A stretch of DNA of 64,000 nt from Candidatus Berkelbacteria bacterium (lineage in GTDB: Bacteria > Patescibacteriota > UBA1384 > DTJR01): the NCBI GenBank assembly GCA_029865605.1, contig JAOUGE010000004.1, positions 2,562-66,561 on the forward strand, written 5' to 3'. Below the pieces are notes generated by a model. That model ran no database searches, was not told the DNA's origin, and saw nothing but the letters and a program-made list of their open reading frames with translations. Numbering within the stretch: position 1 is the stretch's first letter; the number at the start of each line of letters is the position of its first letter. The position numbers and the translations under genes were made by a program. Below, in pieces: positions 6,349 to 58,308 of this stretch.

Positions 6349-8070
6349 ATGATCAACAAAACCTGTCGACAGTGTAAAAAAGAATTCGCAGTCGAGGACG
6401 ACGACCTCTCATTTTACAAAAAAATCTCCCCCACTTTTGCCGGAAAGACCTTTGATATCCCCCCGCCAACCTCGTGTCCGGAGTGTCGTCAGATGCGTCG
6501 GCTTGCCTGGCGTAATGAAAGGTCGATTTATAAACGAAAATGCGATAAAACAGGCAGAGAAATCGTCAGCATTTTTTCTCCTGACAAAAAAGATTACACT
6601 GTTTACGATCAGCAGATCTGGTGGGGTGACACTTGGGACGCTATGGAATATGGACAGGACTTTGATCCCAACCAGCCGTTTTTTAAGCAATTAGGCCTGC
6701 TCAATAAAAAAGTACCTAAGCTCTCTTTAAATAATATAAACACGGTAAATAGCGAGTACGGCAATCACGTGATGGAGATAAAAAACTGCTATATGTCGGT
6801 AGTTACTTATTATGGCAGTGAGGACGTGCATTATTCTTACGGGGCATTCACTTGTAAAAACTCCATTGACTTATTCATCAGCGAGAAGTGTGAAAACAGC
6901 TATCGCCTTATATATTGTGACAACTGTTATAATTGCCGATATTCTCAACGGCTCAACAATTGCACTGATTGTTATTATTCTATTGATCTGACGGCGTGCT
7001 CGAATTGCCTTTTTTGCTCGAACTTAAAGCACAAGGAATACCACATTCACAACAAAAAATATTCTAAAGAAGATTACGAAAAAGAGCTGCAAAAATATGA
7101 TTTTGGTTCTTGGGAAAAATCAAAGCAATATTGGCAGGAGTTTGTTGAGTTAAAAAATAACTCGATCGTTAAGTTCGCTAACAATGTAAATTGCGATAAT
7201 TGTTCGGGCGATGATTTGACAAATTGCAAGGATGTGAAGTATTCCTTCAGCCAGAAGAGATCGGAACATTCAAAATACAGTTTGCGAGGGGTAAATGATA
7301 AATACTGCTATGACTATATGGGTGGGGACATAGAGTGGGGTTATGAGTTTTTGAGCTCGGGCTATGGCAGCTCTATTTTATTTTGCTATTTAGAAGAAAG
7401 GTCGGCAAACTTGGCTTATTGCATAAGCTGCTTTGGCTGCCGAGATTGCTTTGGGTGTGTGGGATTGAAGAATAAACAGTACTGCGTATTTAATAAAGAG
7501 TATTCAAAGGAAAGTTACGAAGCTTTTGTAGCAAAAATTATTGAGAGGATGATGGCGGATAAAGAGTGGGGAGAGTTTTATCCCTATCAAATGTCGCCGT
7601 TTGGTTTTAACGAGACGCTTGGCTATTCTTATTATCCAATCAAAAAAGAGGAAGCACTAAAGCTTGGCGCCAAGTGGCAGGACGATGATTTCGGTATTAA
7701 ATTTGATGGTAAATTCTATGAGCCGGAAGACGATATTGAAGAGTATAACAAGAGCCAAGAGAAGCGGGAAGAACTGTTGAATGGCGTATTGAAGTGCGAA
7801 GTTTCCGGCAAGCCGTTTAAAATAGTTCCGCAGGAACTTGCATTTTATATGGAACAAAAAGTCCCGATTCCGAGGAAACATTATGACATTAGATACAAAG
7901 AAAATTTTGCTCTTCAGAATCCCCGTAAACTCTGGCATCGCCAATGTGTGTGTGAAGAAAAAGGTCACGGTCACGAGGGAAGATGTAAAAACGAATTCGA
8001 GACAACATACGCTTCCGACAGACCGGAAAAGGTGTATTGCGAAAAGTGCTACCAGAAATCTGTTATTTAG
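6349..8070 (+). CDS. cysteine-rich paralog A1 (zinc-ribbon-like termini, tandem CxxC repeat core), function unknown
   Basis: 573 aa. N-terminus CxxC...CPxCR...RRLAWRNER..YKRKC; C-terminus ELAFY..PIPRKHYD...HRQCVCEE.GHGHEGRC..FETTYAxDRPEKVYCEKCYQKSVI; homologous to six other ORFs in the window. Confidence 0.8.
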   Translation: MINKTCRQCKKEFAVEDDDLSFYKKISPTFAGKTFDIPPPTSCPECRQMRRLAWRNERSIYKRKCDKTGREIVSIFSPDKKDYTVYDQQIWWGDTWDAMEYGQDFDPNQPFFKQLGLLNKKVPKLSLNNINTVNSEYGNHVMEIKNCYMSVVTYYGSEDVHYSYGAFTCKNSIDLFISEKCENSYRLIYCDNCYNCRYSQRLNNCTDCYYSIDLTACSNCLFCSNLKHKEYHIHNKKYSKEDYEKELQKYDFGSWEKSKQYWQEFVELKNNSIVKFANNVNCDNCSGDDLTNCKDVKYSFSQKRSEHSKYSLRGVNDKYCYDYMGGDIEWGYEFLSSGYGSSILFCYLEERSANLAYCISCFGCRDCFGCVGLKNKQYCVFNKEYSKESYEAFVAKIIERMMADKEWGEFYPYQMSPFGFNETLGYSYYPIKKEEALKLGAKWQDDDFGIKFDGKFYEPEDDIEEYNKSQEKREELLNGVLKCEVSGKPFKIVPQELAFYMEQKVPIPRKHYDIRYKENFALQNPRKLWHRQCVCEEKGHGHEGRCKNEFETTYASDRPEKVYCEKCYQKSVI

Positions 8071-8111
8071 TTTAGTCTGAATGAAATGAGGGATTACCAA
8101 AAGGCGGTCAT

Positions 8112-9770
8112 ATGACGAGAAAATGTATCTCATGTAAAAAAAATTTTGAGATTGAGAAAGAAGATTTAGCTTTTTACAAAAAAATTGGCCCTGTTATCAA
8201 TGAGAAAAAACTCGCAATCGATCCTCCTCGGGAATGTCCATCTTGCCGGGAGATCAGAAGGTGGGCTTATAGAAACCAGAGCTCGCTGTACAAGGCAAAA
8301 TCTGCCCTCTCCGGGGAAGAAATGATTTCTCTTTACCCTCCTATTACCGAATATACGGTATACAAAGAAAATGAGTGGTGGACGGACAAGTGGGATCCGC
8401 TTTCATACGGCCAAGAATATGATTTCTCCAGGCCATTTTTTGAACAGTTTTTCGAACTTCAAAAAAAAGTGCCGAGGCGGGCTCTCCAGCAGGACGGTAC
8501 TAACGAGAATTGCGAGTTTACTACCTACGGAACCAGTAATAAAAACTGCTATCTTGCCTTTGCTTGTAGTGTCTGTGAAGATGTCTACTATACTGATTGG
8601 TCTCATCAACTCAAAGATTGTATAGATTGTATTAAATGCGTGGGTGGTGAATTGCTATATGAGTGTGTAGATAGCAACAACTGCTATAATAGCATGCATT
8701 TAAAAGACTCTAACGCATGCCGGGAATCCTTTTTGCTTGAAGATTGCCAAAGTTGTGCCAATTGCATTTGCTGTAAAAATTTAGTCGAAAAAGAATATTA
8801 TTATTTCAACAAAAAAATCTCAAAACCCGAATATCAAAAAATAGTAGAAGAAGCAAAAAAAGACGATTTCAAGAAACTAGAAGAAAAGTTTAATAAATGG
8901 AAAAAGAGTCAGCCAGCTCGCTTTGCAAGGATTATCGGATCGGAAGAATGCACGGGTGATAATATTTTTAAGTGCAGAAACTGTAAGAAATGTTTTGACC
9001 TTTTGCTTGGAGCGGAGAATTGCAGGTATTGTTATTTCTGCGGAGGGGGTGCTAAGGAAATGTACGATTGCAATATGGCCGGCCAAGGGAGTGAGCTAAT
9101 TTATGAGATGCAAGCTACGGTTGGATCTTATAATTGCGCTTTTATTAACTTTTGTCGAATATCAAAAAATTGTTACTATTCTGATTCGCTTGGATCGTGT
9201 GATAGTTGTTTCGGTTGTATCGGCCTTAATCACAAAAACCATTGTATATTAAACGAGCAATACACAGAGGAAGAATACAAAAGATTACTGCCCAAAATTA
9301 TCGAGCATATGAGAAAGACCGGAGAGTGGGGGCGGGGTTTTCCGATTAAAAACTCGCCGTTTCCGTTTAACGATACTTCGGCATATGAACTTCATCCAAT
9401 CTCAAAGGAAGAGGCTTTAACGAAGGGCTACCTTTGGAATGACAATAAAGTTCTACCGCAAGACGAGAGCAAGATGACTAAAGACGTTTATCAATGCGTT
9501 TCCTGTCTAAGGAAATTCAAAATGATTCCGCACGAGTTATTTTTCTATGAAAGGATGAGCGTAAATAAACCCAAGCAATGCTTTTTCTGTCGAAGAAAAG
9601 AAAGACTAAAAAACAGAATCAGCTACTCGCTTTTTGAAAGAGAGTGCGTGTGCGAGGAGTCGGGTCACGGTCACGAGGGAAGGTGTAAGGTAGAATTTGA
9701 GACAACCTACGCACCGGATAGACCGGAGAAGGTATATTGTGAAGATTGTTATCAAAAATCTATTATATAA
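8112..9770 (+). CDS. cysteine-rich paralog A2
   Basis: 552 aa; shares the N-terminal CxxC/FYKKI module and the C-terminal CVCEESGHGHEGRC...YAPDRPEKVYCEDCYQKS module with the family. Confidence 0.8.
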   Translation: MTRKCISCKKNFEIEKEDLAFYKKIGPVINEKKLAIDPPRECPSCREIRRWAYRNQSSLYKAKSALSGEEMISLYPPITEYTVYKENEWWTDKWDPLSYGQEYDFSRPFFEQFFELQKKVPRRALQQDGTNENCEFTTYGTSNKNCYLAFACSVCEDVYYTDWSHQLKDCIDCIKCVGGELLYECVDSNNCYNSMHLKDSNACRESFLLEDCQSCANCICCKNLVEKEYYYFNKKISKPEYQKIVEEAKKDDFKKLEEKFNKWKKSQPARFARIIGSEECTGDNIFKCRNCKKCFDLLLGAENCRYCYFCGGGAKEMYDCNMAGQGSELIYEMQATVGSYNCAFINFCRISKNCYYSDSLGSCDSCFGCIGLNHKNHCILNEQYTEEEYKRLLPKIIEHMRKTGEWGRGFPIKNSPFPFNDTSAYELHPISKEEALTKGYLWNDNKVLPQDESKMTKDVYQCVSCLRKFKMIPHELFFYERMSVNKPKQCFFCRRKERLKNRISYSLFERECVCEESGHGHEGRCKVEFETTYAPDRPEKVYCEDCYQKSII

Positions 9771-9852
9771 AAACAATCTTCATGGTGAGCGAAGTCGAAT
9801 CCATGAAAAGTGCTACCAAAACGCCGTGTTATAAGGTATAATTACACTGTAA

Positions 9853-11853
9853 ATGGATAAAGAACAAGCAAGAAAACGCATCGAGGTTTTGCGCAAAGAA
9901 ATCGATGAAAATCGTTACCTTTATCATGTTCTCGACAAGCCGCGGGTTTCCGATGCGGTTGACGATTCTCTTAAAAGAGAGCTAGCCAAACTCGAGGAAC
10001 AGTTTCCCGACCTGGTAACGCCTGATTCGCCGACGCAGAGAATTGGCGGGAAGCCGCTCGATAAATTTAAAAAAGTCCGTCATAGAATCCCGATGCTCTC
10101 TTTAAATGATGCCTTCTCCGAAGATGATTTAAAAGCTTGGGAGCAGCGGCTTATCAAACTAGCCGGCGAGAAAAAGATTAAGAATTCGGGCTTCTACTGC
10201 GAGCTTAAAATGGACGGCTTGGCCGTCAGTTTGCAGTATCAAAAAGGAGTTTTAACTGTTGGCACGACCCGCGGCGACGGCCAGATAGGGGAGGATGTAA
10301 CTAATAATTTGAAAACTGTTGAGTCAGTCCCGTTAAAATTAAGGGGTGATGTGGCCGAAGAAATAGAAGTTCGCGGTGAAGTGTATTTGCCCAAAAAAGA
10401 TTTTGAAAAGTTAAATGAAGAACAAAAAAAGAAGGGCGGGCAAATATTCGCCAACCCCCGAAATATTTCTGCCGGCTCAATCCGCCAGCTCGATCCAAAA
10501 ATCACCGCTTCCCGCAATCTGCAGTTTATGATGTATTCGATCCCGACCAGGCTTGATCTTCAATCTCATCACGAAGAGCACGATTTGGCCAAAAAACTTG
10601 GCTTTAAAACAAGTGATAAAAACAAAGTTTGCAAGGACATCAACGAAGTATTATCTTTTCTTAAACATTGGGAAAAAGCGCGCCAGGGTTTGCCTTTTCA
10701 AACTGACGGAGTGGTAGTTGGGGTCGACGATAAGAAGGTTTTTGAACAATTGGGCGTTGTTGGCAAAGCGCCGAGGGGACGGATTGCCTATAAATTTGCT
10801 GCCGAAGAAGCGACTTCTCAGATTAAGGATATTGTTGTTCAAGTCGGGCGCACCGGCAAGCTCACGCCTGTGGCTCATCTTGAGCCGACTTTGGTTGCGG
10901 GCTCGACAATTTCGCGGGCGACGCTTCATAATGCTGATGAAATAAAACGTAAGGACATTAAAATTGGAGATACGGTTGTAATCCACAAGGCCGGTGATGT
11001 TATTCCCGAAGTCAAAGAAGTGATAAAGCGAATGCGAAGCGGCGACGAGAAGGAATTTCATATGCCAAAAGAGTGCCCGATTTGCGGCGGCAAGGTGATT
11101 AAAAGAGAGGGCGAGGTTGATTGGTATTGCGCAGATAGGGATTGTTCGGTAAGGGTGATGCGCTCGATCGGTCATTTTGTCTCAAAAGGTGCTTTTGAAA
11201 TAGACGGTTTGGGGCCGAAGATAATCCAAAAACTAATCGAAGTCGGGTTGGTAAAAGATGCAACCGATATTTTTGATTTAAAACAGGGCGACCTGGAACC
11301 GCTTGAAAGATTTGCCGAGAAATCGGCTCAAAACCTCGTTGAGTCTATCGAAGCAAGCAAGGAAATATCGCTTGACCGGTTTATTTACTCGCTTGGCATT
11401 CGCCACGTCGGCTCGGTTATGGCTCAGGATTTAGCCCGTCAGTTCGGAACGCTTGAAAAATTTACCAAAGCTTGCCATGAAGATTTTGACAGAATGTATG
11501 GTGTGGGAGGGAAAGTCGCCGACAGTATTATTGAATTTTTAGAAGAGGAAAAAAACCTGCGCTTGATTGAGAAAATGCAAAAACTCGGCGTGAAAATAAA
11601 AAGTTTTGAATCGGCCGTGAAAGCCGATAAGTTGAAAGATCAGAGTTTTGTTGTCACCGGTTCGCTTGAAACAATGACACGCGAGGAAGCCCATAAGAAA
11701 ATCATTCAATACGGCGGCGAAGTTCACACCAGCGTTTCATCTCAAACCAACTTTTTAATCGTCGGCGAAGAACCCGGCTCAAAGTTAGATAAAGCGAAAA
11801 AGTTAGGCGTTAAACAAATTTCAGAAAAGAATTTTCTTGAAATGATCTCGTAA
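9853..11853 (+). CDS. ligA: NAD-dependent DNA ligase
   Basis: KxDG adenylation motif (CELKMDGLAVSL), OB, Zn-finger (CPICGG), HhH and C-terminal BRCT; 666 aa. Confidence 0.9.
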   Translation: MDKEQARKRIEVLRKEIDENRYLYHVLDKPRVSDAVDDSLKRELAKLEEQFPDLVTPDSPTQRIGGKPLDKFKKVRHRIPMLSLNDAFSEDDLKAWEQRLIKLAGEKKIKNSGFYCELKMDGLAVSLQYQKGVLTVGTTRGDGQIGEDVTNNLKTVESVPLKLRGDVAEEIEVRGEVYLPKKDFEKLNEEQKKKGGQIFANPRNISAGSIRQLDPKITASRNLQFMMYSIPTRLDLQSHHEEHDLAKKLGFKTSDKNKVCKDINEVLSFLKHWEKARQGLPFQTDGVVVGVDDKKVFEQLGVVGKAPRGRIAYKFAAEEATSQIKDIVVQVGRTGKLTPVAHLEPTLVAGSTISRATLHNADEIKRKDIKIGDTVVIHKAGDVIPEVKEVIKRMRSGDEKEFHMPKECPICGGKVIKREGEVDWYCADRDCSVRVMRSIGHFVSKGAFEIDGLGPKIIQKLIEVGLVKDATDIFDLKQGDLEPLERFAEKSAQNLVESIEASKEISLDRFIYSLGIRHVGSVMAQDLARQFGTLEKFTKACHEDFDRMYGVGGKVADSIIEFLEEEKNLRLIEKMQKLGVKIKSFESAVKADKLKDQSFVVTGSLETMTREEAHKKIIQYGGEVHTSVSSQTNFLIVGEEPGSKLDKAKKLGVKQISEKNFLEMIS

Positions 11854-11902
11854 ATATTTTGCATTTTTTCCTTTTCTTGATAAGATATAAATTGAGGTTT
11901 TT

Positions 11903-15837: not shown

Positions 15838-17562
15838 ATGCCACAAACAAAACAATGTAAACAGTGTAGCCAGGAATTTCAGATAACAGATGATGATTTA
15901 GAATTTTTGAAGAAAGTAAGCCCGATTTTACAGGGGCAAACTATTTTAATCTCTCCGCCGACTCTCTGTCCGACTTGCAGAGAGATCAAGAGATTATGCT
16001 GGCGGAATGAGCGAAGTTTGTACAAAAGAAAATCGGATAAGTCAGGCAGGGAAATTGTTTCTATTTATTCGCCTGATAAAACCGATTATCAGGTGTATGA
16101 TATTTCCGAATATCAAAGCGATGAATTTGACCCGATGAGTTTCGGCCAGGAATATGATTTTTCAAAAAGCTTCTTTGCCCAATACGACGAATTGCTTCAT
16201 AAGGTTCCGAGAAAAGCTAGCAACACAACTAGAAATGAAAACAGTGACTACTGTAACCAAACATGGCAAACCAAAGATTCATATCTTTGTTTTAATGTTG
16301 GTTATGCTGAGAACTGCCTTTACTGCACAGAAGCTTTCCATGTTAAAAATTGTGTAGATTGTTTTGATATAAGAGATTGCGAGTATTGCTATAGTTGTTT
16401 TGATTGCGTTAACTGTAACAAATCGAAATATATTGAACACTGTAGAGATTGTTTTGAGTGCTATTTTATTTATGACTGTTTGGGTTGCAAAAATGTTGTT
16501 CTTTCCAGCGGCCTTCATAACAAACAGTATGTCTTTGAAAATAAACAGTTAACAAAAGAGGAATACGAAGAGAGGGTAAAAAACATCGATTTTTCCAGTA
16601 GAGCTGCAATGGATGAGCTTAAAAAGCGATTCGAAGAATTGAAAAAGAGTGCCATTCATCGCGAGAACAATAATATTTCTTCAGAAAATTGCACGGGAGA
16701 TTATTTGATCGAATGTAAGGATTGCACAGATTGTTATAATGCCCTGAAAAGTGAGGGGTGCAAAAGGGTTGCCGGAATTGATGATGCTTCGCGCGATTGT
16801 CGAGATATGAACATTATTACTGAGGCGGAGCTTTGCTATGAAGGCACAAGTGTGACCGGACACAAAAACCTTTTAAGCGTTTTTGTGGTCTATGGCAGTG
16901 ATAATATATATTGTAATTTTTGCGAAAATTGCAACAACTGCTTCGGGTGTGTCGGACTAAACCACAAACAATACTGCATCTTGAATAAACAGTATGCGAA
17001 AGATGAATATGAGAAACTGCTAGCAAAAACAATTGAGAAGATGAAAGAGGACAATGAGTGGGGAGAATTTTTCCCGATGAGCATTTCTCCGTTTGGTTAT
17101 AACGAGGCATTAGTAAATGCCTATCATCCAAAATCAAAAGATGAGGCAAAAAAACTTGGTGCAAAATGGCAAGACAATGATTATTCTCTTCAATATCAGG
17201 GTGAATTTTATGCGCCAAAGGATTCTATAAAGGAATATGTTGCCTCGAATGACGAAGTAAAAAATTTGCTCAATGGAGTCTTGGAATGCGAGACAAGCGG
17301 AAAAGCATTTAAGGTCATGCCGCAGGAAATCGCTTTTTACATGGAGCATAATATTCCTGTTCCATCCAAGCACTCTGAGATTCGATACGAAGAATTATTT
17401 AAAAAAAGAAATCCCCGTAAACTCCACCACCGCCAGTGTATGTGTGAAGAATCTGGCCACGATCATGGCGGACGTTGTCCTGTTGAATTTGAAACCACCT
17501 ACGCACCCGACCGGCCGGAGAAGATTTATTGTGAAAACTGTTATCAGAAATCAGTTATATGA
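15838..17562 (+). CDS. cysteine-rich paralog B1
   Basis: 574 aa; the same conserved termini as A1 (CKQCSQEF..DDDLEF.KKVSP...CPTCREIKRLCWRNERSLYKRK; ...HRQCMCEESGHDHGGRC..FETTYAPDRPEKIYCENCYQKSVI). Confidence 0.8.
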   Translation: MPQTKQCKQCSQEFQITDDDLEFLKKVSPILQGQTILISPPTLCPTCREIKRLCWRNERSLYKRKSDKSGREIVSIYSPDKTDYQVYDISEYQSDEFDPMSFGQEYDFSKSFFAQYDELLHKVPRKASNTTRNENSDYCNQTWQTKDSYLCFNVGYAENCLYCTEAFHVKNCVDCFDIRDCEYCYSCFDCVNCNKSKYIEHCRDCFECYFIYDCLGCKNVVLSSGLHNKQYVFENKQLTKEEYEERVKNIDFSSRAAMDELKKRFEELKKSAIHRENNNISSENCTGDYLIECKDCTDCYNALKSEGCKRVAGIDDASRDCRDMNIITEAELCYEGTSVTGHKNLLSVFVVYGSDNIYCNFCENCNNCFGCVGLNHKQYCILNKQYAKDEYEKLLAKTIEKMKEDNEWGEFFPMSISPFGYNEALVNAYHPKSKDEAKKLGAKWQDNDYSLQYQGEFYAPKDSIKEYVASNDEVKNLLNGVLECETSGKAFKVMPQEIAFYMEHNIPVPSKHSEIRYEELFKKRNPRKLHHRQCMCEESGHDHGGRCPVEFETTYAPDRPEKIYCENCYQKSVI

Positions 17563-19280
17563 GCCAAAATAAAACGTGCAAGCAGTGTAATGAACAATTT
17601 ATCGTTGAAGACGAAGATCTAGAGTTCTACAAAAAAATCTTTCCGACTTTTGCCGGTAAAACTTATCATATCCCGCCGCCGACGCTGTGTCCGGATTGCA
17701 GGATGATAAGACGGCTTCTTTGGCGCAACGAGAGAGCCCTTTATAAACGGAAATGTGAACGTACGGGTAAAGAAATTGTATCGATCTATTCTCCCGACAA
17801 AAAGCATTTTAAGGTGTGGAATCAAGACGAGTGGTATAAGGACAATTGGGACCCGCTCGATTTTGGGAGGACATATAACTCTTCCGAGTCGTTCTTTAAA
17901 CAGTTTTATGAATTGCAGCAAAATGTCCCGCGTCCCGCAATGAGTTTTTTTAATTGCGAAGATTGCTATTATTGCAATTTCGTCTGGAATGCTAAAAAAT
18001 GTTATCTCTGTTGGGCAACGATGGATCTTGAGAATTGTATGTATTCGACGAGATCATTTGAATCGGTCGGATGTGTTGACTGTATTGATACGAGAAATAG
18101 CCAGCATTGCTACAGTTGTCTTGACTGCGAGAATTGCTATAAAGCTAGGTACTCAGAACGATGTAAGGATTGCTCAGAGATTTCTTTTTGTTTCGACTGT
18201 CGAGGATGTAAAAATATCTATCTTTGCACGAATCTTAGGAACAAACAATATTATATTCGGAACAAGCAGTACAGCCGCGAAGAGTATTTCCGTGTTTTAG
18301 AAAAAAATGCGGGGAGCATATCGCGGGGGAAGCAAGATACTGCCGAGTTGAAAGAGATGGAGGAAAAGTCAATTCATCCTGAAAATTACAACCTGAAGTG
18401 TGAGGACTGCTCGGGGGATTATCTGACCGAATGTAAAAACTGTTCTGAGTGTTTTTTGGTCGCCAAATCTGAAAGCAGCAAGTATATTTTGAGCGGAAAC
18501 CAGAATATAAATCATAGCTACGATATATACCAAAATGTAGATAGCGAATTTAGCTACGAAGGAATCGGCGGCTCGGGATATAAAAATATTTTTTGTGCTT
18601 GGATGATGCGCGGTAATGATAATTATTACTGTAATTTTTGTGAAAGCTGCTCAAATTGTTTTGGTTGTTTTGGGTTGAAACAAAAACAACACTGCATTTT
18701 AAACAAACAGTATTCCAAAGAGGAATACGAGAAGATTGTGTCTGAAATAATAGAGAAAATGAGCAAAGACAAGGAATGGGGCGAATATTTTCCCTCTTGG
18801 TCAGCGCCATTTTGTTACAACGAGACTATGGCAAATACCTGGTTTCCAAAGTCCCGTGACGAAGCGGTGAAGCTTGACGCCAAATGGCAAGACAATGATT
18901 ATATCCCGAATTATTCGGGAGATTATTACTCGCCTAAAGACAAAATTGAAGAATACATTGGCAACAAAGAAGAACAGGAAAAAATGGTGGAAGGGGTACT
19001 GAAGTGCGAGGTTTCGGGAAAACCATTTAAGATTATGCCTCAAGAGCTTAATTTTTATATTGAGAACAAAATTGCGATACCGACTAAGCACTATGAAGTT
19101 AGGTACTTGGAGAGATTTAATCTTAGGAACCCCCGCAAGCTTTACCGTCGCCAGTGTATGTGTGAAGAACCGGGACATAATCATGAGGGAAGATGCAAAA
19201 TTGAGTTTGAGGCTACCTACGCACCCGATCGGCCGGAGAAGATTTATTGTGAAAACTGTTATCAAAAGACGGTAATATGA
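17559..19280 (+). CDS. cysteine-rich paralog B2
   Basis: 573 aa; ATGA overlap with the B1 stop; conserved family termini. Confidence 0.8.
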   Translation: MSQNKTCKQCNEQFIVEDEDLEFYKKIFPTFAGKTYHIPPPTLCPDCRMIRRLLWRNERALYKRKCERTGKEIVSIYSPDKKHFKVWNQDEWYKDNWDPLDFGRTYNSSESFFKQFYELQQNVPRPAMSFFNCEDCYYCNFVWNAKKCYLCWATMDLENCMYSTRSFESVGCVDCIDTRNSQHCYSCLDCENCYKARYSERCKDCSEISFCFDCRGCKNIYLCTNLRNKQYYIRNKQYSREEYFRVLEKNAGSISRGKQDTAELKEMEEKSIHPENYNLKCEDCSGDYLTECKNCSECFLVAKSESSKYILSGNQNINHSYDIYQNVDSEFSYEGIGGSGYKNIFCAWMMRGNDNYYCNFCESCSNCFGCFGLKQKQHCILNKQYSKEEYEKIVSEIIEKMSKDKEWGEYFPSWSAPFCYNETMANTWFPKSRDEAVKLDAKWQDNDYIPNYSGDYYSPKDKIEEYIGNKEEQEKMVEGVLKCEVSGKPFKIMPQELNFYIENKIAIPTKHYEVRYLERFNLRNPRKLYRRQCMCEEPGHNHEGRCKIEFEATYAPDRPEKIYCENCYQKTVI

Positions 19281-30225: not shown

Positions 30226-30384
30226 CACGAAGATACGCTTGGATTATTAGCGGGTTCCACCCCGCGAAGCCCAGCAGAAAAAGCCCGTTCTTGAGAGAAT
30301 TCTCGCGTTCCACCTGCTCGAAGCGGCTTGCTCGTCCCGCCACAGGCGGAACACCGGCTCGCTTCGCCTGCGAATGATCTTCTT
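30226..30384. repeat. dispersed ~150-nt intergenic repeat, copy 2
   Basis: About 90% identical to 1522-1672 over the core. Hairpin GTCCCGCC-aca-GGCGGAAC shows a compensatory change relative to copy 1. Preceded by CTTGACAC-17-TATTAG, a promoter-like arrangement. Confidence 0.6.
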
Positions 30385-48930: not shown

Positions 48931-50844
48931 ATGTGGTTTATGCCAATCTTTAAGAAAAACCAGACAGTAAGGCTTATCGCTTTATTTATTTATTGTAGGA
49001 TAAAAACTGTCCTTTATTTATTTTATGCTAGCTTGTTGGTGTTGTGCACTTTTTTGCCTGCAAAAGCGCTTGCTCCGCTTATAACCGTAACTGAGCTTGA
49101 CTATCAAGCTGGTCAGGGATTAGGCCAGTGTTATCGAATGGATGGTGATTTGGATGGGGACGGAATAGATGATATTGTCTCTGGTCTAATAAGATGGCAA
49201 AGCACGAATGATACCGGGCGGATTCTTATCTATTGGGGTGGGGAAAATGTCTCTTCAACGCCAGATGTGGTTATTGACGGAGAAGCCGTCAACACTCGTT
49301 TTGGTGATGGCTTGAGCGTGGGAGATTTTAATGGCGACGGTATTGACGATCTGGCGTCAGGCGCAATCGAAACGGCTACTAACGATGGCAAGGTTTACGT
49401 TCTCTATGGCCGGTCACGTGCCGCCTGGTCATCTGTTACTAACGCTTCACAGGCGAATGTAAAAATTACCGGTGACACGGATAGCCACTTAGGCAATAAA
49501 GTGGGACTAGAGGGAGATATTAATGGCGATGGCTACAACGACCTTTTAATGGGGGCGGAATATTGGGGAGCAAGTGATCAGGGTAGGGCTTATATTTTGT
49601 TTGGCGAGGATAATGATTCAATTAATATCACTGTCGCTAACGTTGATGTCATTATTAATAATGATTTTGGAGCGGGGGTTTCGGCTTTGGGGGATGACGT
49701 TTATATTGCTGATGTTGCCGGTGATAGCTATCCGGATATTTTAATTTCTGTTGGAGATTGGTTAGATGGCGACGGCGGCCAATCAAGAGTGATAATATTT
49801 AACGGGTCGGCATCTTTCCCGACAGGGACTATCAATGCTTCTACAGCCAACGCAATAATTTTAGCTAACGGGAATACCGATTTTGAAGGGTTTGGTTATG
49901 CTGTTCGAGCCGGCGATGTCAATAGCGACGGCAAAAAAGATCTGCTTGTTGGCTCCGATCACTTTATAACTACGACAGGATTGCCCCGACTATCGATTTT
50001 TTACGGCGGGCCAGGTATATCTGGAACTATGTATGCAGTTACCGATGCCGATCAAGTGATAATCGGTGAAGCAGAGGGAGATTTGTTTTCGATGGCGATT
50101 ATGACTGGCGATATCAACAATGACGGTGTCGATGATATAGCAACAACTGCCTATTTTTACCCCACGCCGTGGGTCGGCCCGGGAAGATTGTATATTTTTT
50201 ACGGCGGGTCCGGGCTTGCAAGCAAAACAAATGCTTCTCAAGCTGATTATATTATGGAAAATCCTTTGGGAATCAGCTTGATGGGCTGGTGGGTTGCTGT
50301 GGGTGATATTAATAATGACGGCTGGGACGAAGTAGGCGAAGTATATATCAAGGAGTCTGGCGTGACGACCACCCTGCGCATTTTTGGCCTCTCTCATCTA
50401 TCGCCCGTGGTGACTATTAATAGTCCATCTATTAGTTACAGTGGAGGTCAAGCAGGGGTGCAATTTACAGGTAGTGCCACCGATCCTGATAGTGGAAACA
50501 TACAACGTGTCCAATATTCACTCGATGGTGGTTCCTGGCAGAGTGCTCTGCCGTCCGATGGTTCTTTTGGCTCGACTTCGGAAGATTATTACTTTGATCT
50601 GACCATCACCAGCAATGGTTCATATGGTGTGAGAGTTCGAGCGAGTGATTCGGAAAATGCAACCACCAGCGAAGCTAGCTATGCCGTTTCGAGTTTTGAT
50701 ATTAATGGCATTATTACTCAAGCTATTCAAACGGGCATTCTCCCCGAAACAGGCGCTGGTTCGGATTTAGAACCGGCCTTGGCTTTATTGATTTTACCCT
50801 TTGTTATAACCGGCTTTGTACTATACTTTCAAAAGTTGAGATAA
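48931..50844 (+). CDS. sortase-anchored surface protein with FG-GAP (integrin-alpha-like) repeats
   Basis: Signal peptide; repeated DxNGDGxDD FG-GAP motifs; C-terminal LPETG plus hydrophobic stretch plus KLR sorting signal. Confidence 0.75.
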   Translation: MWFMPIFKKNQTVRLIALFIYCRIKTVLYLFYASLLVLCTFLPAKALAPLITVTELDYQAGQGLGQCYRMDGDLDGDGIDDIVSGLIRWQSTNDTGRILIYWGGENVSSTPDVVIDGEAVNTRFGDGLSVGDFNGDGIDDLASGAIETATNDGKVYVLYGRSRAAWSSVTNASQANVKITGDTDSHLGNKVGLEGDINGDGYNDLLMGAEYWGASDQGRAYILFGEDNDSINITVANVDVIINNDFGAGVSALGDDVYIADVAGDSYPDILISVGDWLDGDGGQSRVIIFNGSASFPTGTINASTANAIILANGNTDFEGFGYAVRAGDVNSDGKKDLLVGSDHFITTTGLPRLSIFYGGPGISGTMYAVTDADQVIIGEAEGDLFSMAIMTGDINNDGVDDIATTAYFYPTPWVGPGRLYIFYGGSGLASKTNASQADYIMENPLGISLMGWWVAVGDINNDGWDEVGEVYIKESGVTTTLRIFGLSHLSPVVTINSPSISYSGGQAGVQFTGSATDPDSGNIQRVQYSLDGGSWQSALPSDGSFGSTSEDYYFDLTITSNGSYGVRVRASDSENATTSEASYAVSSFDINGIITQAIQTGILPETGAGSDLEPALALLILPFVITGFVLYFQKLR

Positions 50845-51593: not shown

Positions 51594-51670
51594 GGGCGTA
51601 TAGCTCAGCTGGTTAGAGCGCGTCACTGATAATGACGAGGTCCATGGTTCGAGTCCATGTACGCCCACCA
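51594..51670 (+). tRNA. tRNA-Ile (anticodon GAT)
   Basis: Clean cloverleaf: acceptor GGGCGTA/TACGCCC, anticodon stem CGTCA/TGACG with loop CTGATAA, T-loop TTCGAGT, encoded CCA. Confidence 0.9.
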
Positions 51671-51738
51671 AAAGACCATAAAATAATAATTCGGAGGTTC
51701 AGCCGATATTCATTGGAAAAATAATTGTCGGCGAGGTT

Positions 51739-51865: not shown

Positions 51866-51870
51866 TTTTT

Positions 51871-52350: not shown

Positions 52351-52449
52351 ATCGATTCCCTCGACAGAGTTTACCCTGTTAAAGCGAACTCTCTTTAATG
52401 GGGTTTACCTATTAGTTGGGATAATATATACTTGACTTAAGGACCGAAT

Positions 52450-54699
52450 ATGAGCCAAGAAGATCTTTTAGTTGCGAAAGATTATGTTATTAAGCTGCCT
52501 AGAGCGGTTGCTTTTGAACCGAAGGCGTTTAGCGAATTTTTGCGTACTACCTCAAGGATAATGAAAAACCTTCCCTTTGCTTTTCTTATGACGATGGAGG
52601 GAAAGAAAATTTATTACGGAATAAGATCTAACAGAAGCTATTATAATGTCATTGAAAATCAGCTTTACTCCGCCTTTCCTGGCGTTGAAGTGGAAGAAAC
52701 TGAAAGAGAGATGTTTTCGGGTAGGTTTGAAAACGGGGCCAGAGCAATCCTTTGGCTTAAGCACGGCGACTTTTATCCGTTTTTAAAACACGATCAGATT
52801 GAAGGGGATTTTCTGGCTGATTTCTATAACCAATTCACTCATCTTACAGCCCAAGATCAGTTTTATTTTCAGGTGAAGATTTGTCCTTTGGACTATAATC
52901 GGATGAGATTTTCCCTAGCGAGGAGTTTAAGACTGGGTATGAAAAGTCTTAGAGATAGAGTTAATATTATTGAGGCAGTAACCTCCAAAAAGGCTTCGGC
53001 CGGGGTAAAGAGAATGGCTTACGAAGCGGCCATTGAGAAAAACAAACAGCCTCTTTTTCTCTGCGAGATTGATTTGGTTGTTTACTCTGACAGTTATGAA
53101 ACGGCGAGATTGAAATTGGAGCCGATTGCCCATGTATTTCAGAAACTAGAGAGCGATTATAATGAGTTTTATTATAAAATTCAACCCCTAGCCGAGTCGG
53201 ATGTTGATGAACTAAGATCATTTAAATTCGGCCGCCAGGCGGTTTGTTTGGCACCGGACGAACTTTCCACGATCTACCACTTCCCGCCTCACACTGACCA
53301 GGTGCCCAATCTTTATAAAATTATGTCGCCCAAAGCCGAGCCGCCAATAGGGCTCCCGACTCCAGACAATACTCCACCCGAAGAGTTGTGCCTTTTTGCC
53401 CAAACTAACTATCGAAATATCAGGGAGATTTTTGGCATCAAACGCCGCGATCGCGTCCGCCACATGTATATGATTGGCAAGTCTGGCTCTGGCAAGTCTA
53501 AACTGATGGAGTTGATGATTAAAAACGACATCGAACAAGGCCATGGTGTTTGCGTGATTGACCCTCACGGCGACTTAATTGAGAATATTCTTCCTTTTGT
53601 CCCCGAGTCAAGAGTTAAAGACACGATCTATTTTAATCCGGTTGACGAGGAATATCCGATTTCTTTTAACCCGCTGGAAAAAGTTGACCGAATGTACCGC
53701 CAGCAGGTGGCGAGCGGCTTGATCGAAATATTTAAGAAGACCTTTGGCGCTAACTGGTCACCGCGGCTTGAGCATGTCTTGCGAATGACAATATTGGCTC
53801 TTCTTGATGCGCCCAGAGCTTCGGTGATGTCGATTCTCCTTCTTTTAACCGACAGGGAGTATAGGCAAGAAGTGATAAAAAATATTGAGGATCAAGTCGT
53901 CAAGAATTTCTGGACCAATGAATTTGCCAGCTGGAGCGAAAAGTTTGACAGCGAAGCGATTATGCCCGTTTTGAACAAAATCGGCCAGTTTGTATCAACT
54001 ACGGTTATTAGAAATATCGTTGGTCAGGAAGAAAACAAAATCAATATGAAAGATATTATGGATAATCGCAAGATTATTTTCGTTAAGCTCCCCAAGGGAG
54101 TGTTAAACGAAGAAAACACCTCGCTTCTTGGCGCAATGGTTATTACCAAAATCTATCAGAACGCTCTGGCCCGTTCGGAAGTTCCCGAGCACCAGCGAGT
54201 TCCATTCTATCTTTACGTTGACGAGTTTCAAAACTTTGCCACCGATACTTTTTCAAATATTCTGTCGGAGGCAAGAAAATATAAATTGAGTTTAACCCTG
54301 GCCCACCAGTATGTTTCGCAGCTAAGCGATCTTATTAAGAGAACGGTTTTTGGTAATGTCGGTTCGATTGTTTCGTTTAGAGTAGGCCCCGAGGACGCCT
54401 TGCTTTTAGCTAAAGAGTTTGAGCCGAGATTTACCGATGCTGATATTGTCAATCTTGGCGTGAGGGAAATTTATCTAAAACTTTCAATTGACGATGAGAT
54501 TAGAGAGGCCTTCTCGGCTAGAACCCTGGCAATGCCGCAGGTTGAGACGAGCTTCAAAGAGCAGATTGTTGCCTTCACCCGTGAGAATTACTGTCGCTCT
54601 AGAGAAACCGCCGAACATGAAATCAGCCGCGAAAAATCGAAAGAAATGGAAGTTCTTGATAAACTCAAAGGCGAAAACTTCTCCGCGCCGATTTTATAA
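52450..54699 (+). CDS. DUF87/HerA-FtsK-superfamily ATPase of the TraD/VirD4/TraG coupling-protein type
   Basis: Walker A MIGKSGSGKSKLM, CVIDPHGDL (the xIDPxGE/D motif of DUF87 and T4 coupling proteins), Walker B LYVDEFQNF, arginine finger region; 749 aa. Confidence 0.6.
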   Translation: MSQEDLLVAKDYVIKLPRAVAFEPKAFSEFLRTTSRIMKNLPFAFLMTMEGKKIYYGIRSNRSYYNVIENQLYSAFPGVEVEETEREMFSGRFENGARAILWLKHGDFYPFLKHDQIEGDFLADFYNQFTHLTAQDQFYFQVKICPLDYNRMRFSLARSLRLGMKSLRDRVNIIEAVTSKKASAGVKRMAYEAAIEKNKQPLFLCEIDLVVYSDSYETARLKLEPIAHVFQKLESDYNEFYYKIQPLAESDVDELRSFKFGRQAVCLAPDELSTIYHFPPHTDQVPNLYKIMSPKAEPPIGLPTPDNTPPEELCLFAQTNYRNIREIFGIKRRDRVRHMYMIGKSGSGKSKLMELMIKNDIEQGHGVCVIDPHGDLIENILPFVPESRVKDTIYFNPVDEEYPISFNPLEKVDRMYRQQVASGLIEIFKKTFGANWSPRLEHVLRMTILALLDAPRASVMSILLLLTDREYRQEVIKNIEDQVVKNFWTNEFASWSEKFDSEAIMPVLNKIGQFVSTTVIRNIVGQEENKINMKDIMDNRKIIFVKLPKGVLNEENTSLLGAMVITKIYQNALARSEVPEHQRVPFYLYVDEFQNFATDTFSNILSEARKYKLSLTLAHQYVSQLSDLIKRTVFGNVGSIVSFRVGPEDALLLAKEFEPRFTDADIVNLGVREIYLKLSIDDEIREAFSARTLAMPQVETSFKEQIVAFTRENYCRSRETAEHEISREKSKEMEVLDKLKGENFSAPIL

Positions 54700-54719
54700 G
54701 TTATTATCTTATTTGCGGG

Positions 54720-54776
54720 TTTAGCGAGTTTTTCGGGTTTGAAATTCTAACTCGCTAAATAAATAACTCGCTAAAT
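54720..54776. promoter_or_regulatory. TTAGCGAGTT / AACTCGCTAA inverted and direct repeats upstream of paralog C1
   Basis: TTTAGCGAGTT (54720-54730) pairs with AACTCGCTAAA (54749-54759); a second AACTCGCTAAAT lies at 54765. Two more TTAGCGAGTT copies follow C1 at 56521-56540. Confidence 0.4.
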
Positions 54777-54790
54777 AGAAAAATTGAAGA

Positions 54791-56509
54791 ATGGCTATTA
54801 ATAAAACCTGCAAACAGTGTAAAAAAGGATTCGTGGTTTTGGATGATGATTTGGTCTATTTGGACAGAATTTCGCCAACCTTCGCGGGTAAAAAGTTCTC
54901 TGTTCCGGCACCATCTCTTTGTACGGACTGTCGCATGCAGAGGCGCGTAGCTTGGAGAAACGAAAGAAATCTTTATAAGAGAAAGTGCGATCTTTGTCAA
55001 GAACAGATAGTTGCTTTATATGAACAAGATTCGCCATTCGCAGTTTATTGCCAAAAATGCTTTTGGTCGGATAAGTGGAACCCACTAGAATTTGCTAAAG
55101 ATTATGATCCTTCAAGGTCTTTTATCGAACAGATTAAAGAAATACAAAAAAAAGCTCCTCGCCTAGCCCTCCTTAATACTTTTTCGGAAAATTCGGAGTT
55201 TACTAATCATTCCTCAAAAAATAAGGATTGCTATTTAGTTTTTGCTTCGTTTGATAATGAGCGCGTCATGTACTGCCGAAAAACTCGTAACTCCAAAGAT
55301 ATCTTGGATTGCACGACCTGTTTTTACGGCTCAGAGCTTTGTTACGAATGTTTTTTGATTGAGAATTGTTATTCCTTGAAATATTCAGTCAACTGCAAGA
55401 ACTGCTCAAATTCCAATTTTCTTTTTGATTGTCTGGACTGTAAGGATTGTTACATGTGTTACGGGCTTCGTAATAAACAGTATTATTTTGAAAATAAGCA
55501 ATTAAGCGAAGAGGAATATAAAAGAAGGATACCTAACTTAGGATCTCGCAAAATTCGAGATGCCGAAAGAAAAAGATTCATAGAATTTTCGAAAGATGCT
55601 GTACGCAAATATGCGAGATTTACAAACTCCGAGAATTCCACTGGTGATGATCTTATTAATTGTTCGAGATGTGTTAATTGTTATGATGTTGAAAAAGCTG
55701 AAGATTGCAAGAATTTTGAGCATGGCGAAGTCCTTAATTGGTGCGTTGATTGTTATGGTGCCGGTAACCCCGGGGAGTATCTTTACGAAGTGCACGGTAT
55801 CTTAGATGGTCATAATTGTGCTTTTACGCACGCTAGCTATCATTCGTCCCGTGTCTACTATTGTGATAATTGCCAAAACTGTCAGGATATTTTTGGCTGT
55901 GTCAGTTTAAAAAAATCTCAATATGCAATTTTAAATAAGCAATATTCGCGTGATGAATACGAAAAGAAAATTGCCGAAATAATTGAAAAAATGACCCAAG
56001 CTGGTGAGTGGGGAGAATTTTTCCCAATCGGTATGAGCCCATTTGCCTATAATGAAACCTTGGCTTCTGAATATTTTCCTCTTAAAAAAGAGGGGGTTGA
56101 GGCAATTGGCGCTAAATGGAGAGATATCACCCATGAAAAAATTAATATAGAAACAGTCATCCCGCATGATGATATATCTGTCTACATCGATTCAAAAGAG
56201 GAGGTAGAAAAATTATTAGCCTCTGCTATAAAATGTTCGGTAACCGGTATTCCTTTTAGAATCTTGCCGCAGGAAATGGTTTTCTATTTGAAAGAAAAAA
56301 TCCCGGTCCCGGAAATTCATTATGATGCACGTCATGCCGAGAGACAGAAATATGTTAACCCCCGCAAGCTTTGTAAGCGCCAATGCATGTGCGAAGAACA
56401 AGGACACCACCACGAAGGAAGATGTAAAGTAGAATTTGAAACCACATACACACCCGATAGGCCAGAGAAAGTATATTGCGAGAGGTGTTACCAGAAATCA
56501 GTTATTTGA
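54791..56509 (+). CDS. cysteine-rich paralog C1
   Basis: 572 aa; conserved family termini (CKQCKKGF...CTDCRMQRRVAWRNERNLYKRKCD; ...QCMCEEQGHHHEGRC...TPDRPEKVYCERCYQKSVI). Confidence 0.8.
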   Translation: MAINKTCKQCKKGFVVLDDDLVYLDRISPTFAGKKFSVPAPSLCTDCRMQRRVAWRNERNLYKRKCDLCQEQIVALYEQDSPFAVYCQKCFWSDKWNPLEFAKDYDPSRSFIEQIKEIQKKAPRLALLNTFSENSEFTNHSSKNKDCYLVFASFDNERVMYCRKTRNSKDILDCTTCFYGSELCYECFLIENCYSLKYSVNCKNCSNSNFLFDCLDCKDCYMCYGLRNKQYYFENKQLSEEEYKRRIPNLGSRKIRDAERKRFIEFSKDAVRKYARFTNSENSTGDDLINCSRCVNCYDVEKAEDCKNFEHGEVLNWCVDCYGAGNPGEYLYEVHGILDGHNCAFTHASYHSSRVYYCDNCQNCQDIFGCVSLKKSQYAILNKQYSRDEYEKKIAEIIEKMTQAGEWGEFFPIGMSPFAYNETLASEYFPLKKEGVEAIGAKWRDITHEKINIETVIPHDDISVYIDSKEEVEKLLASAIKCSVTGIPFRILPQEMVFYLKEKIPVPEIHYDARHAERQKYVNPRKLCKRQCMCEEQGHHHEGRCKVEFETTYTPDRPEKVYCERCYQKSVI

Positions 56510-56583
56510 TTATTACGAGTTTAGCGAGTTAGCGAGTTTCAACCCGCTAAATAACCAACTTGCCAAATAAAAAATAAATTAAT

Positions 56584-58308
56584 ATGCCTTTATCCAAAAC
56601 CTGCAAGCAATGTAGTCAGCAATTCACGGTAGAAGATGAAGACTTAGAATTCTACAAAAAAGTCTCCCCGACTTTGGGTGGAAAAACTTACGAATGGCCG
56701 GCGCCGACATTATGTATGTTTTGCCGGGGAATGAGACGGCAAGCTTGGCGCAACGAAAGAAATCTCTATAAGACTAAATGCGCTAAATCCGGCAAGGAAA
56801 TTGTAAGCGTTTATTCACCAGACAAGACCGACTATAAAGTGTATGAACTTTCCGAATGGTGGAAAGATGATTGGGACGCGATGCAATATGGCAAGGAGTT
56901 TGATTCCTCGCGGGGATTTTTTGATCAGTTTGATGAGTTATTAAAAGCTGTGCCAAGACTGTCTCTCTTTAATACCCAAACTCAAAACTGCGATTATGTA
57001 AACTACACGGCTGAATGCAAAGACTGCTATATGTCCTCCGTTATTTATTATCAATGCGATAAAGTTCATTATTCATATCTGACTTATTATTCGAAAAATA
57101 GCATTGACATAGGGTATTGTGACAAAGTTGAAAACTGCTACGAGCTGGTCAGCAGTAATGGTTGCTATGGTTGTCGGTATTCGAATCGTTTAACGAATTG
57201 TCGCGACTGCTATTTTTGCCAGGATTTAAATGGCTGCTCAGATTGCATTTTGTCAAACAACCTAACTCGCAAACAGTATTGCGTCAGAAATAAACAGTTA
57301 ACAAAAGAAGAATATGAAAAAGAAAAAAAGGAATTAGATCTTGGCTCCTATCAAAAAGTTAATGAATACTTGAAAGAATATGAGCAAATGAGAAAGGGGG
57401 CGATCGTCAAATTTGCCAATCTGCTTAATTGCGAGAATTGCGAGGGCGATAATTTGATTAACTGCAAGAATGTTAAGAAATGTTTTAGCGCAGTCAGGGT
57501 TGAAAATAGCCGTTATTCGTTTGATCAAGAGGATGGGAAAAATATCTATGACTGTGAAGGCGGCTCTTACGAGTGGGCGGTTGAATCAAACCACACAGGA
57601 TTTGGCTCTAACTTTATCGTCTGTTCTGGAGTTTTGAATTCCAGTTTTCTTTATTATTGTGAAAATTGCCATAACTGCCGTGATTGTTTCGGCTGTGTCG
57701 GTTTAAGGGGCAAGCAATTCTGCGTTTTTAATAAGCAATATAGCAAGGAAGAATATGAGCAGTTAGTAGAAAAAATTATTAAGAAGATGGTAGAAGGTGG
57801 CGAATGGGGCGAATTCTTCCCCTTTAGATTGAGTCCTTTTGGGTATAATGAATCACTGGCTAATGATTATCATCCCAAAACGAAAGAAGAGGTAAAAGGA
57901 ATCGGTGCTAAATGGCAGGATAATGATTATTCGCTTAAATACGATGGCCCCTTTTATGAACCCAAAGATAATATTAAGGACTATATTGAAAATGAGGGGG
58001 AAAGGAACAAACTGCTGGCTGGTATATTAAAGTGCGAGGTCTCGGGCAAGCCGTTTAAGCTGGTTCCGCAAGAACTCGCCTTTTACTTTGAGCAGGGAGT
58101 TCCTATACCACGCAGGCACTATGATGTTCGCTACAAAGAGCGGTTTAAGATGAGAAATCCCAAAGTATTACACCATCGCCAGTGTGTGTGCGAAGAACAA
58201 GGGCATGAGCATGAAGGAAGATGTGAGAACGAATTTGAAACGACCTATGCGCCGGATCGTCCGGAGAAAATATACTGCGAGAGGTGCTATCAGAAAAGCG
58301 TTGTGTAG
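56584..58308 (+). CDS. cysteine-rich paralog C2
   Basis: 574 aa; conserved family termini (CKQCSQQF..EDEDLEFYKKVSP; ...HRQCVCEEQGHEHEGRC...YAPDRPEKIYCERCYQKSVV). Confidence 0.8.
   Translation: MPLSKTCKQCSQQFTVEDEDLEFYKKVSPTLGGKTYEWPAPTLCMFCRGMRRQAWRNERNLYKTKCAKSGKEIVSVYSPDKTDYKVYELSEWWKDDWDAMQYGKEFDSSRGFFDQFDELLKAVPRLSLFNTQTQNCDYVNYTAECKDCYMSSVIYYQCDKVHYSYLTYYSKNSIDIGYCDKVENCYELVSSNGCYGCRYSNRLTNCRDCYFCQDLNGCSDCILSNNLTRKQYCVRNKQLTKEEYEKEKKELDLGSYQKVNEYLKEYEQMRKGAIVKFANLLNCENCEGDNLINCKNVKKCFSAVRVENSRYSFDQEDGKNIYDCEGGSYEWAVESNHTGFGSNFIVCSGVLNSSFLYYCENCHNCRDCFGCVGLRGKQFCVFNKQYSKEEYEQLVEKIIKKMVEGGEWGEFFPFRLSPFGYNESLANDYHPKTKEEVKGIGAKWQDNDYSLKYDGPFYEPKDNIKDYIENEGERNKLLAGILKCEVSGKPFKLVPQELAFYFEQGVPIPRRHYDVRYKERFKMRNPKVLHHRQCVCEEQGHEHEGRCENEFETTYAPDRPEKIYCERCYQKSVV

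Follow-up and report, generated by a model that had tools for sequence, protein, structure and literature searches.

Tandem arrays of cysteine-rich, predicted double-solenoid proteins are linked to a soluble VirD4-like ATPase gene in Patescibacteria

The window analyzed here, a 64,000-nucleotide (nt) stretch of a Candidatus Berkelbacteria genome (GenBank assembly GCA_029865605.1, contig JAOUGE010000004.1, forward-strand positions 2,562 to 66,561), carries seven related genes, C1 to C7, for cysteine-rich proteins of about 65 kDa, together with the gene of a putative partner ATPase (Table 1). Open reading frame (ORF) calls and translations placed the seven at exactly the coordinates reported by a first-pass annotation made from the sequence, all on the plus strand and encoding 552 to 574 amino acids (aa), in the three tandem clusters it had described: C1-C2, C3-C4-C5, and C6-C7. 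The members of the middle cluster are joined by 4-nt ATGA overlaps, an arrangement frequent in co-translated genes. The genes take up 18.7% of the window, a housekeeping region of 64 kb in which close to a fifth thus goes to seven copies of one uncharacterized gene, and arrays in relatives reach 11 genes. A protein identical to C7 is recorded for a Candidatus Berkelbacteria metagenome-assembled genome, which has at least two additional copies on other contigs; locus L161, from the same or a near-identical genome, carries a family copy.

The homology of the seven proteins is far beyond chance, with 39 to 56% identity to C1 and scores of 655 to 928 bits against a family profile hidden Markov model (HMM). 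Their cysteine content had been overestimated at about 45 to 55 each; the counts in Table 1 correspond to 5.8 to 7.8% of residues, and across the family the mean is 36.6 cysteines (range, 24 to 50). The description of conserved termini of 60 to 90 residues around divergent cores captured a real but rough pattern, as homology spans the full length of the proteins, with the most conserved stretches at residues 1 to 125, 361 to 460, and 481 to 574 and the most variable at 140 to 220 and 240 to 360. None of the seven has a signal peptide, as had been noted, or a hydrophobic N terminus or transmembrane helix: the maximum 19-residue Kyte-Doolittle hydropathy is at most 1.3, and a CxxC motif begins at residue 5 to 7. 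The seven proteins are cytoplasmic.

Table 1. Family genes, neighboring ATPase gene, repeat copies, and predicted domains of C7, in window coordinates
Feature	Position	Strand	Description
C1	6349..8070	+	573 aa, 33 Cys; from ORF and translation; 888 bits against family HMM
C2	8112..9770	+	552 aa, 43 Cys; most divergent member; 655 bits against family HMM
C3	15838..17562	+	574 aa, 40 Cys; likely orthologue in locus L082, 78% identity
C4	17559..19280	+	573 aa, 42 Cys; start overlaps C3 stop by 4 nt
C5	19277..20986	+	569 aa, 36 Cys; start overlaps C4 stop by 4 nt; likely orthologue in locus L084, 69% identity
Soluble VirD4/TraG/HerA-clade P-loop ATPase	52450..54699	+	749 aa, no transmembrane helix; directly upstream of C6
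13-nt motif (AACTCGCTAAATA) copies	54718..54777		Inverted and direct copies between ATPase gene and C6; hairpin z = -4.1
C6	54791..56509	+	572 aa, 39 Cys
AACTCGCTAAATA motif, four copies (two on each strand)	56518..56569		Between C6 and C7; hairpin z = -3.6
C7	56584..58308	+	574 aa, 37 Cys; protein used for structure model
C7 aa 1-62	56584..56769	+	Predicted N-terminal zinc ribbon, net basic; Cys 7/10/44/47, 95-98% conserved
C7 aa 129-236	56968..57291	+	Predicted beta-solenoid 1; coils of ~12 residues
C7 aa 279-383	57418..57732	+	Predicted beta-solenoid 2; same cap motif as solenoid 1
C7 aa 384-480	57733..58023	+	Conserved acidic helical region (EWGEFFP...NET...KWQD), predicted
C7 aa 481-574	58024..58305	+	Predicted basic C-terminal zinc module

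An AlphaFold2 model of C7, built from an alignment of 105 sequences, had a mean predicted local distance difference test (pLDDT) score of 91 and a predicted template modeling score of 0.89. With high confidence it predicts a zinc-finger-capped rod, consisting of a Cys4 zinc ribbon, two tight beta-solenoids, acidic helices, and a C-terminal zinc module. In the model a small linker domain separates the zinc ribbon from solenoid 1, whose cysteines all fall in one phase of a 3-residue period and which ends in the cap 'KQYxIxNKQxSKEEYE'. A helical hairpin lies between the two solenoids, and because the cap motif recurs 441 to 450 nt apart in the genes, the solenoids represent an internal duplication. 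Solenoid 2 is followed in the model by a long helix and the acidic helical region, which has a mean net charge of about -8 across the family, and the two zinc-bearing ends are basic, averaging +2.5 and +5.0. In the C-terminal module, a Cys4 finger (Cys 534/547/565/568, 98 to 99% conserved) is accompanied by a degenerate second copy of the zinc ribbon (Cys 484); a weak LIM-like match to this module came from a PDB profile search.

An alignment of 314 nonredundant members to the family HMM shows where cysteine is constrained. Two Cys4 sites, Cys 7/10/44/47 and Cys 534/547/565/568, are near-invariant. Two others are optional: the site at 66/69/88/91 is all-or-none (phi 1.00), occurs in 21% of members, and is present in C6 (Cys 66, 69, 87, and 90), and the site at 484/487/512/515 (phi 0.62 to 0.87) is whole in about 22% of members, among them C2, where it forms the second CxxC...CxxC site (Cys 462, 465, 490, and 493). 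As their cysteines are present or absent together, the optional sites behave as real metal sites and provide an internal positive control for cysteine covariation. The core cysteines behave differently. In solenoid 1, the cysteine fraction by 3-residue phase is 0.37/0.00/0.00, with C, S, L, N, V, and T at in-phase positions and N, Y, D, E, F, and K at outward positions. Most core columns are only about 15 to 80% cysteine, the replacements being Ser, Val, Leu, Thr, or Ala, with higher conservation at three cysteine columns of the final solenoid 1 coil. Cysteine presence is anticorrelated at a separation of 6 (mean phi -0.19 for solenoid 1, -0.05 for solenoid 2) and positively correlated at 12 (phi +0.16), residue type autocorrelates at lag 12 (0.24 to 0.25), and covariation among core cysteines is weak throughout (phi at most 0.53). 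Because the core cysteines are exchanged for Ser, Val, Leu, or Thr and lack the covariation of disulfide pairs or metal quartets, the alignment strongly supports reading them as interior packing, that is, as small inward-pointing residues stacked in ladders along a 12-residue coil rather than as disulfides or metal ligands. The metal-rich core implied by the first-pass annotation is not borne out, given that the core cysteines are replaceable and do not covary while the true optional zinc sites are all-or-none. What is left is a structural oddity: a tight solenoid lined by cysteines that are apparently neither disulfides nor metal ligands.

The family is large. At least 4,923 matches were found among 90%-identity clusters, and in a second database 5,240 clusters at 50% identity matched, 2,181 of them with E < 1e-30; nearly all of the matches listed among the 50%-identity clusters were full-length. 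Species-representative genomes hold at least 581 family loci. Matches that carry a name are called 'hypothetical protein'. Among the best hits, all organism-labeled matches belong to Patescibacteria lineages (Berkel-, Peri-/Peregrini-, Gracili-, and Nomurabacteria, Paceibacterota, Abawaca- and Giovannonibacteria, and some labeled Saccharibacteria), and it is for these best hits that restriction to the phylum holds; one family record is labeled candidate division WS2. Tandem arrays are the rule: 62 of 79 loci examined contain two or more HMM hits, some of which are fragments of split genes, and the largest arrays have 11 hits (in one 22-kb locus), 10 (in one), and 9 (in two). Paralogue amplification, singled out earlier as unusual for a small genome, is thus genuine without being peculiar to this genome, as such arrays are widespread in Patescibacteria. 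GenBank phages and PLSDB plasmids gave no family match and IMG/VR a single fragmentary one, which argues against a typical mobile-element gene.

The family had also been likened to contingency or variable-effector families on account of its conserved ends and variable center, and in comparisons among paralogues that pattern holds. Among the large domains, conservation in distant pairs (30 to 50% overall identity) is lowest in the solenoids (0.33 to 0.37) and highest in the zinc ends (0.44 to 0.54). In close pairs (70 to 85%), the order is reversed, with solenoids at 0.80 and ends at 0.71 to 0.74. The nearest relatives of C3, C5, C6, and C7 in other metagenomes, which are likely orthologues, are 78, 69, 55, and 64% identical, compared with 52, 47, 44, and 56% for the nearest paralogue in their own genome; C3, C5, C6, and C7 being closer to relatives across metagenomes than to paralogues at home, the paralogues are old. 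Synonymous sites are saturated in the likely-orthologue pairs, which leaves no usable ratio of nonsynonymous to synonymous substitution. A search in and upstream of the seven genes found no simple-sequence or homopolymer tracts beyond trivial 2- to 3-copy repeats, and no long identical tracts of a size suited to recombination were found between copies, DNA identity being 60 to 84% even in conserved segments. These comparisons strongly support a solenoid center that is paralogue-specific yet stable, which would fit specificity surfaces fixed after old duplications rather than hypervariable or switching loci. If this were a contingency or phase-variable family whose members diversify rapidly and switch, the multicopy tandem layout and the variable center would be accounted for, but the missing repeat and conversion tracts, the likely cross-genome orthology, and the conservation of the center in close pairs largely refute that reading, and we consider it barely credible. 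The 'variable effector' part of the earlier suggestion gains some support from the linkage to a VirD4-like ATPase described below.

The ATPase encoded directly upstream of C6 matches the Pfam models TrwB_AAD_bind, T4SS-DNA_transf, and TraG-D_C and has a VirD4/TrwB-type nucleotide-binding domain with Walker motifs present; its matches to VirD4/TraD-like NCBIfam models fall far below the cut-off (61 versus 250). Residues 1 to 330, where an N-terminal membrane anchor was sought, contain no hydrophobic segment, and the only hydropathy window above threshold falls inside the ATPase domain. The same residues (positions 52450 to 53439) are modeled as a conserved soluble alpha/beta domain with no match in the Pfam copy searched. 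Homologues of the ATPase carry the precomputed label PF26449.1.

Two tests in opposite directions tie this ATPase to the family. When the neighbors of the 79 family loci were clustered, the ATPase was present in 28; its median gap to a family gene was 132 bp, and the two nearly always shared a strand. When 80 metagenome loci were fetched with the ATPase alone, a family gene was present in 61 and lay within 600 bp of the ATPase in 55; where at least 2 kb was available on both sides, a family gene was adjacent in 31 of 43 loci. Helix-turn-helix regulators form a third element of these neighborhoods. A TrmB-type gene stands divergently next to the arrays in 28 of the 79 family loci, with a PaaX-type gene in its place in some lineages (5 loci), and common arrangements are 'T- F+ ... 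F+ A+' and 'P- A+ F+ F+' (T, TrmB-type; P, PaaX-type; F, family; A, ATPase). Linkage of the family to the ATPase and to helix-turn-helix regulators by gene neighborhood is strongly supported. In one relative (L001, ~10001 to 10147; L094 has the same sequence), an in-frame TAG falls within the conserved N-terminal zinc ribbon of the family gene that comes first after the ATPase (…GKLFE*SSPTLCPDCR…, the asterisk marking the stop). The stop may be a site of read-through, the mark of a pseudogene, or an error in sequencing.

TrmB- and PaaX-type genes were searched for in the window and none was found; at L161, from the same or a near-identical genome, the family copy is flanked by two TrmB-type genes. 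The window has a candidate cis element of another kind. Allowing up to 2 mismatches, AACTCGCTAAATA has eight matches in the window, seven of which lie in the spacers upstream of C6 and C7, compared with 2.2 expected by chance window-wide; the hairpin z scores in Table 1 are relative to shuffled controls. L091, the nearest relative, has a similar arrangement at the corresponding position; no other locus of the 161 searched has it, and the motif is therefore lineage-specific. The repeats may be an operator or may form an RNA hairpin.

Our preferred reading joins these observations into one proposal, to which we assign a probability of roughly 0.5: the zinc ends serve as a docking handle, the solenoid faces as specificity surfaces, and the proteins as clients or interchangeable adaptors of a hexameric ATPase. 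The common zinc-finger ends would provide the shared handle by which family proteins dock on the neighboring soluble VirD4/HerA-clade hexamer. The solenoid faces, which differ between paralogues and are conserved between likely orthologues, would present surfaces for different ligands, and the docked proteins would be either cargo of the ATPase or exchangeable adaptors recruiting different targets to it. In many genomes the adjacent TrmB- or PaaX-type repressors would control expression, and in the lineage of the window the palindromic repeats that precede C6 and C7 may contribute. More tentatively, and in our estimate a possibility with the odds against it, solenoid arrays, soluble VirD4-like ATPase, and helix-turn-helix regulator could together make up an unrecognized Patescibacteria-specific machine, perhaps near-universal, in which the ATPase loads or translocates a repertoire of zinc-capped solenoid proteins, possibly toward a host cell, every protein having a conserved binding face of its own.

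Patescibacteria, which account for much of bacterial diversity, have tiny genomes and live attached to other microbes. A 2025 survey found VirD4-like homologues, role not known, in 2,918 of 3,035 Patescibacteria genomes (96%), with only 148 of 5,713 such ATPases near virB4; the t4cp homologue of Ca. Southlakia epibionticum proved dispensable for epibiotic growth, and the survey raised the possibility that the VirD4-like homologue had been exapted for another function (PMC12102498). The solenoid family is not mentioned there (PMC12102498). Linkage gives the orphan VirD4-like ATPase a candidate partner and supplies a concrete, testable hypothesis. Were the machine real, it would explain why Patescibacteria retain thousands of 'orphan' coupling-protein genes. 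The solenoid protein, for its part, would stand for a new class of architecture in which free cysteines fill a double 12-residue solenoid.

Several points weigh against the docking proposal. Gene linkage is the sole functional evidence for the ATPase partnership, and it is incomplete: 19 of the 80 ATPase loci, many of them short, have no family gene, and in the window the ATPase adjoins only one of the three clusters. The fold of the ATPase is as close to the DptH and HerA defense ATPases as to coupling proteins. On the side of the solenoid proteins, the first half of solenoid 2 is modeled with only moderate confidence (pLDDT of about 68), and the view that the core cysteines bind no metal comes from covariation and not from chemistry. 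No invariant residues of catalytic appearance turned up in the family, which argues for binding over catalysis while proving neither.

In the main rival, the family proteins are substrates or effectors for export. The ATPase would act as a coupling protein that hands them to a Patescibacteria type IV secretion system (T4SS) for delivery to the host bacterium, with the conserved termini as recognition signal and the solenoids as the host-directed part. The tight linkage to a VirD4/TraG-like ATPase and the highly conserved basic C terminus would suit such a role, and a conserved VirD4-binding domain is a feature of the Xanthomonas X-Tfe effectors. T4SS genes are common among these epibionts, and one cultured strain cannot do without them (PMC12102498). 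However, the window ATPase has no N-terminal membrane anchor of the kind that coupling proteins possess, there are no VirB4/VirB6-type genes among the annotated window genes, and both the scarcity of such ATPases near virB4 and the dispensability of t4cp for epibiotic growth (PMC12102498) speak against it. The variable part is a solenoid, not a recognizable toxin, no immunity-like genes lie between the copies, the solenoids are conserved between likely orthologues in a way that arms-race effectors are not, and folded proteins stapled by zinc would be awkward cargo for a T4SS. We regard export as unlikely. A polymorphic toxin array was rejected, since the variable part is a solenoid without a Pfam domain and the copies abut or overlap with no ORF between. 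It is quite unlikely, in our judgment, that the locus is a defense module in which a HerA/DptH-like ATPase works with an array of sensors whose solenoid faces recognize different phage components. A multiparalogue repertoire with differing surfaces would serve that purpose, and the ATPase has weak PADLOC matches to mad8 (E = 1.7e-12) and HerA, but the seven family proteins have no PADLOC match, no nuclease or other effector domain was seen, and the genes sit among housekeeping genes rather than in a defense island. The paralogues are ancient and conserved, and VirD4-like ATPases are near-universal rather than patchy, a count that covers all homologues and not this subfamily alone.

The solenoids could also stack through their conserved termini into cytoplasmic or surface filaments that the ATPase assembles or remodels, with several paralogues per filament following a bactofilin-, curli-, or flagellin-like logic. 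Conserved ends around a variable middle are indeed found in flagellins, and co-transcribed paralogues with overlapping stop and start codons would fit, but in the model helices and zinc modules cap both solenoid ends, which usually blocks end-to-end stacking, and there is no evidence of oligomerization; we think a structural polymer very unlikely. Still more improbable is a metal or redox protein whose CxxC-rich core binds many metals or Fe-S clusters or buffers thiols in the manner of metallothionein. Each window protein does have 22 to 33 core cysteines spaced i, i+3, and a ZIP zinc transporter is encoded 4 kb downstream. Yet the core columns tolerate replacement, their phi values stay below the 0.6 to 1.0 of the real zinc sites in the same proteins, and the interior of a solenoid of this fold class is probably too narrow for clusters. 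With no conserved, covarying sets of cysteine ligands, a metallothionein or Fe-S cluster core was rejected.

Measured against known systems, the docking proposal brings together components of known kinds, namely beta-solenoids, treble-clef zinc fingers, and a VirD4/HerA-clade ATPase. Among the closest known systems is the Tenebrio molitor antifreeze protein (TmAFP; PDB 1ezg), a beta-helix of 12-residue coils; the DSSP assignment of the model shows coils of the same length in which every third residue points inward. In TmAFP, cysteines at i and i+6 form disulfides, whereas family cysteines at that separation are anticorrelated, not paired. The family also lacks the Thr-rich ice-binding face, Thr not being among the 12 commonest outward residues, and its members are cytoplasmic, have no export signal, bear zinc-finger caps, and are seven times longer. 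A disulfide-bonded antifreeze-like helix was rejected on the lack of separation-6 pairing, of a Thr-x-Thr face, and of an export signal. The ATPase departs from the type IV coupling proteins TrwB, VirD4, and DotL in having no membrane anchor, with neither T4SS channel genes nor a relaxase among the annotated window genes, and from the HerA/DptH defense and repair ATPases in having a solenoid array as its partner in place of a nuclease, Sir2, or other effector, and in belonging to a class near-universal in the phylum.

The remaining comparisons concern sequence databases and the literature. Scans of the seven window proteins with Pfam, NCBIfam, and PADLOC profiles gave nothing significant, in agreement with the first reading of the family as unrecognized, and no curated family covers the whole protein. 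The terminal CxxC...CxxC modules are presumably what is matched by zf_Tbcl (PF13451) and zf_Tbcl_2 (PF23477), domains described as 'probable treble clef' that have no known function and cover less than 20% of a family protein. With E values up to 0.1 accepted, zf_Tbcl_2 matches 45 of 79 diverse members (best, 1.2e-6) and zf_Tbcl matches 20 (best, 4e-8); among the window proteins, only C2 is hit, at residues 525 to 549, with 14.4 bits against a cut-off of 27. A PDB sequence profile search returned only insignificant LIM and TmAFP matches, and a Foldseek search of the model against the PDB found no match (template modeling score at most 0.12). The large secreted Cys-rich proteins of Peribacteria come from the same phylum and are also encoded by clustered genes, but they range from 580 to 3,860 residues, mostly have signal peptides, and resemble pappalysin or Myxococcus repeats (PMC4736985); no protein listed there fits the description of the family, and the two sets are distinct (PMC4736985). 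No description of the family was found in literature on the family itself, on zf_Tbcl/PF13451, or on Patescibacteria Cys-rich or beta-helix paralogues. The family in its entirety and its double solenoid with cysteine ladders appear to be undescribed, and so, most importantly, does its conserved association with the orphan coupling-protein-like ATPases of Patescibacteria. One family member, P0221 (808 aa), has a C-terminal extension of about 250 residues in which a helix-turn-helix-like segment was seen by eye; it is possibly a fusion with a regulator, or else a gene-calling run-on.

The surroundings of the family genes are those of an ordinary chromosome. The window encodes 16S rRNA, S2, RRF, TIM, PGK, aldolase, and trigger factor, as well as ClpP, LigA, GatA/B, RF-1, and a class II aminoacyl-tRNA synthetase that is probably LysRS. 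Protein genes split the usual rRNA-operon spacer, with ClpB-like and FG-GAP genes located between the 16S rRNA gene (43373 to 44834) and tRNA-Ile(GAT) (51594 to 51670), and the ATPase gene, C6, and C7 lie between tRNA-Ile and tRNA-Ala(TGC) (58624 to 58699). The 23S rRNA gene is not in the window. The ZIP-family zinc transporter gene (62373 to 63116) lies 4 kb downstream of C7, and coincidence is possible despite the zinc fingers of the family. A CAP (cysteine-rich secretory protein) domain protein (116 to 709) is unrelated to the family, as is an FG-GAP/Big_7 repeat protein (48931 to 50844) that resembles some Cys-rich Peribacter proteins with integrin FG-GAP annotations (PMC4736985). An intergenic repeat of about 105 nt, with no Rfam match at the gathering threshold, occurs twice, at 1562 to 1666 and at 30279 to 30381, the copies being 93 to 94% identical and 28.7 kb apart. 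At window positions 6001 to 10000, 16001 to 20000, and 54001 to 58000, the family genes are more AT-rich than their neighbors (GC content, 0.39 versus 0.45; GC at third codon positions, 0.41 versus 0.46); since the difference is mostly at first codon positions, it is in large part an effect of amino acid composition.

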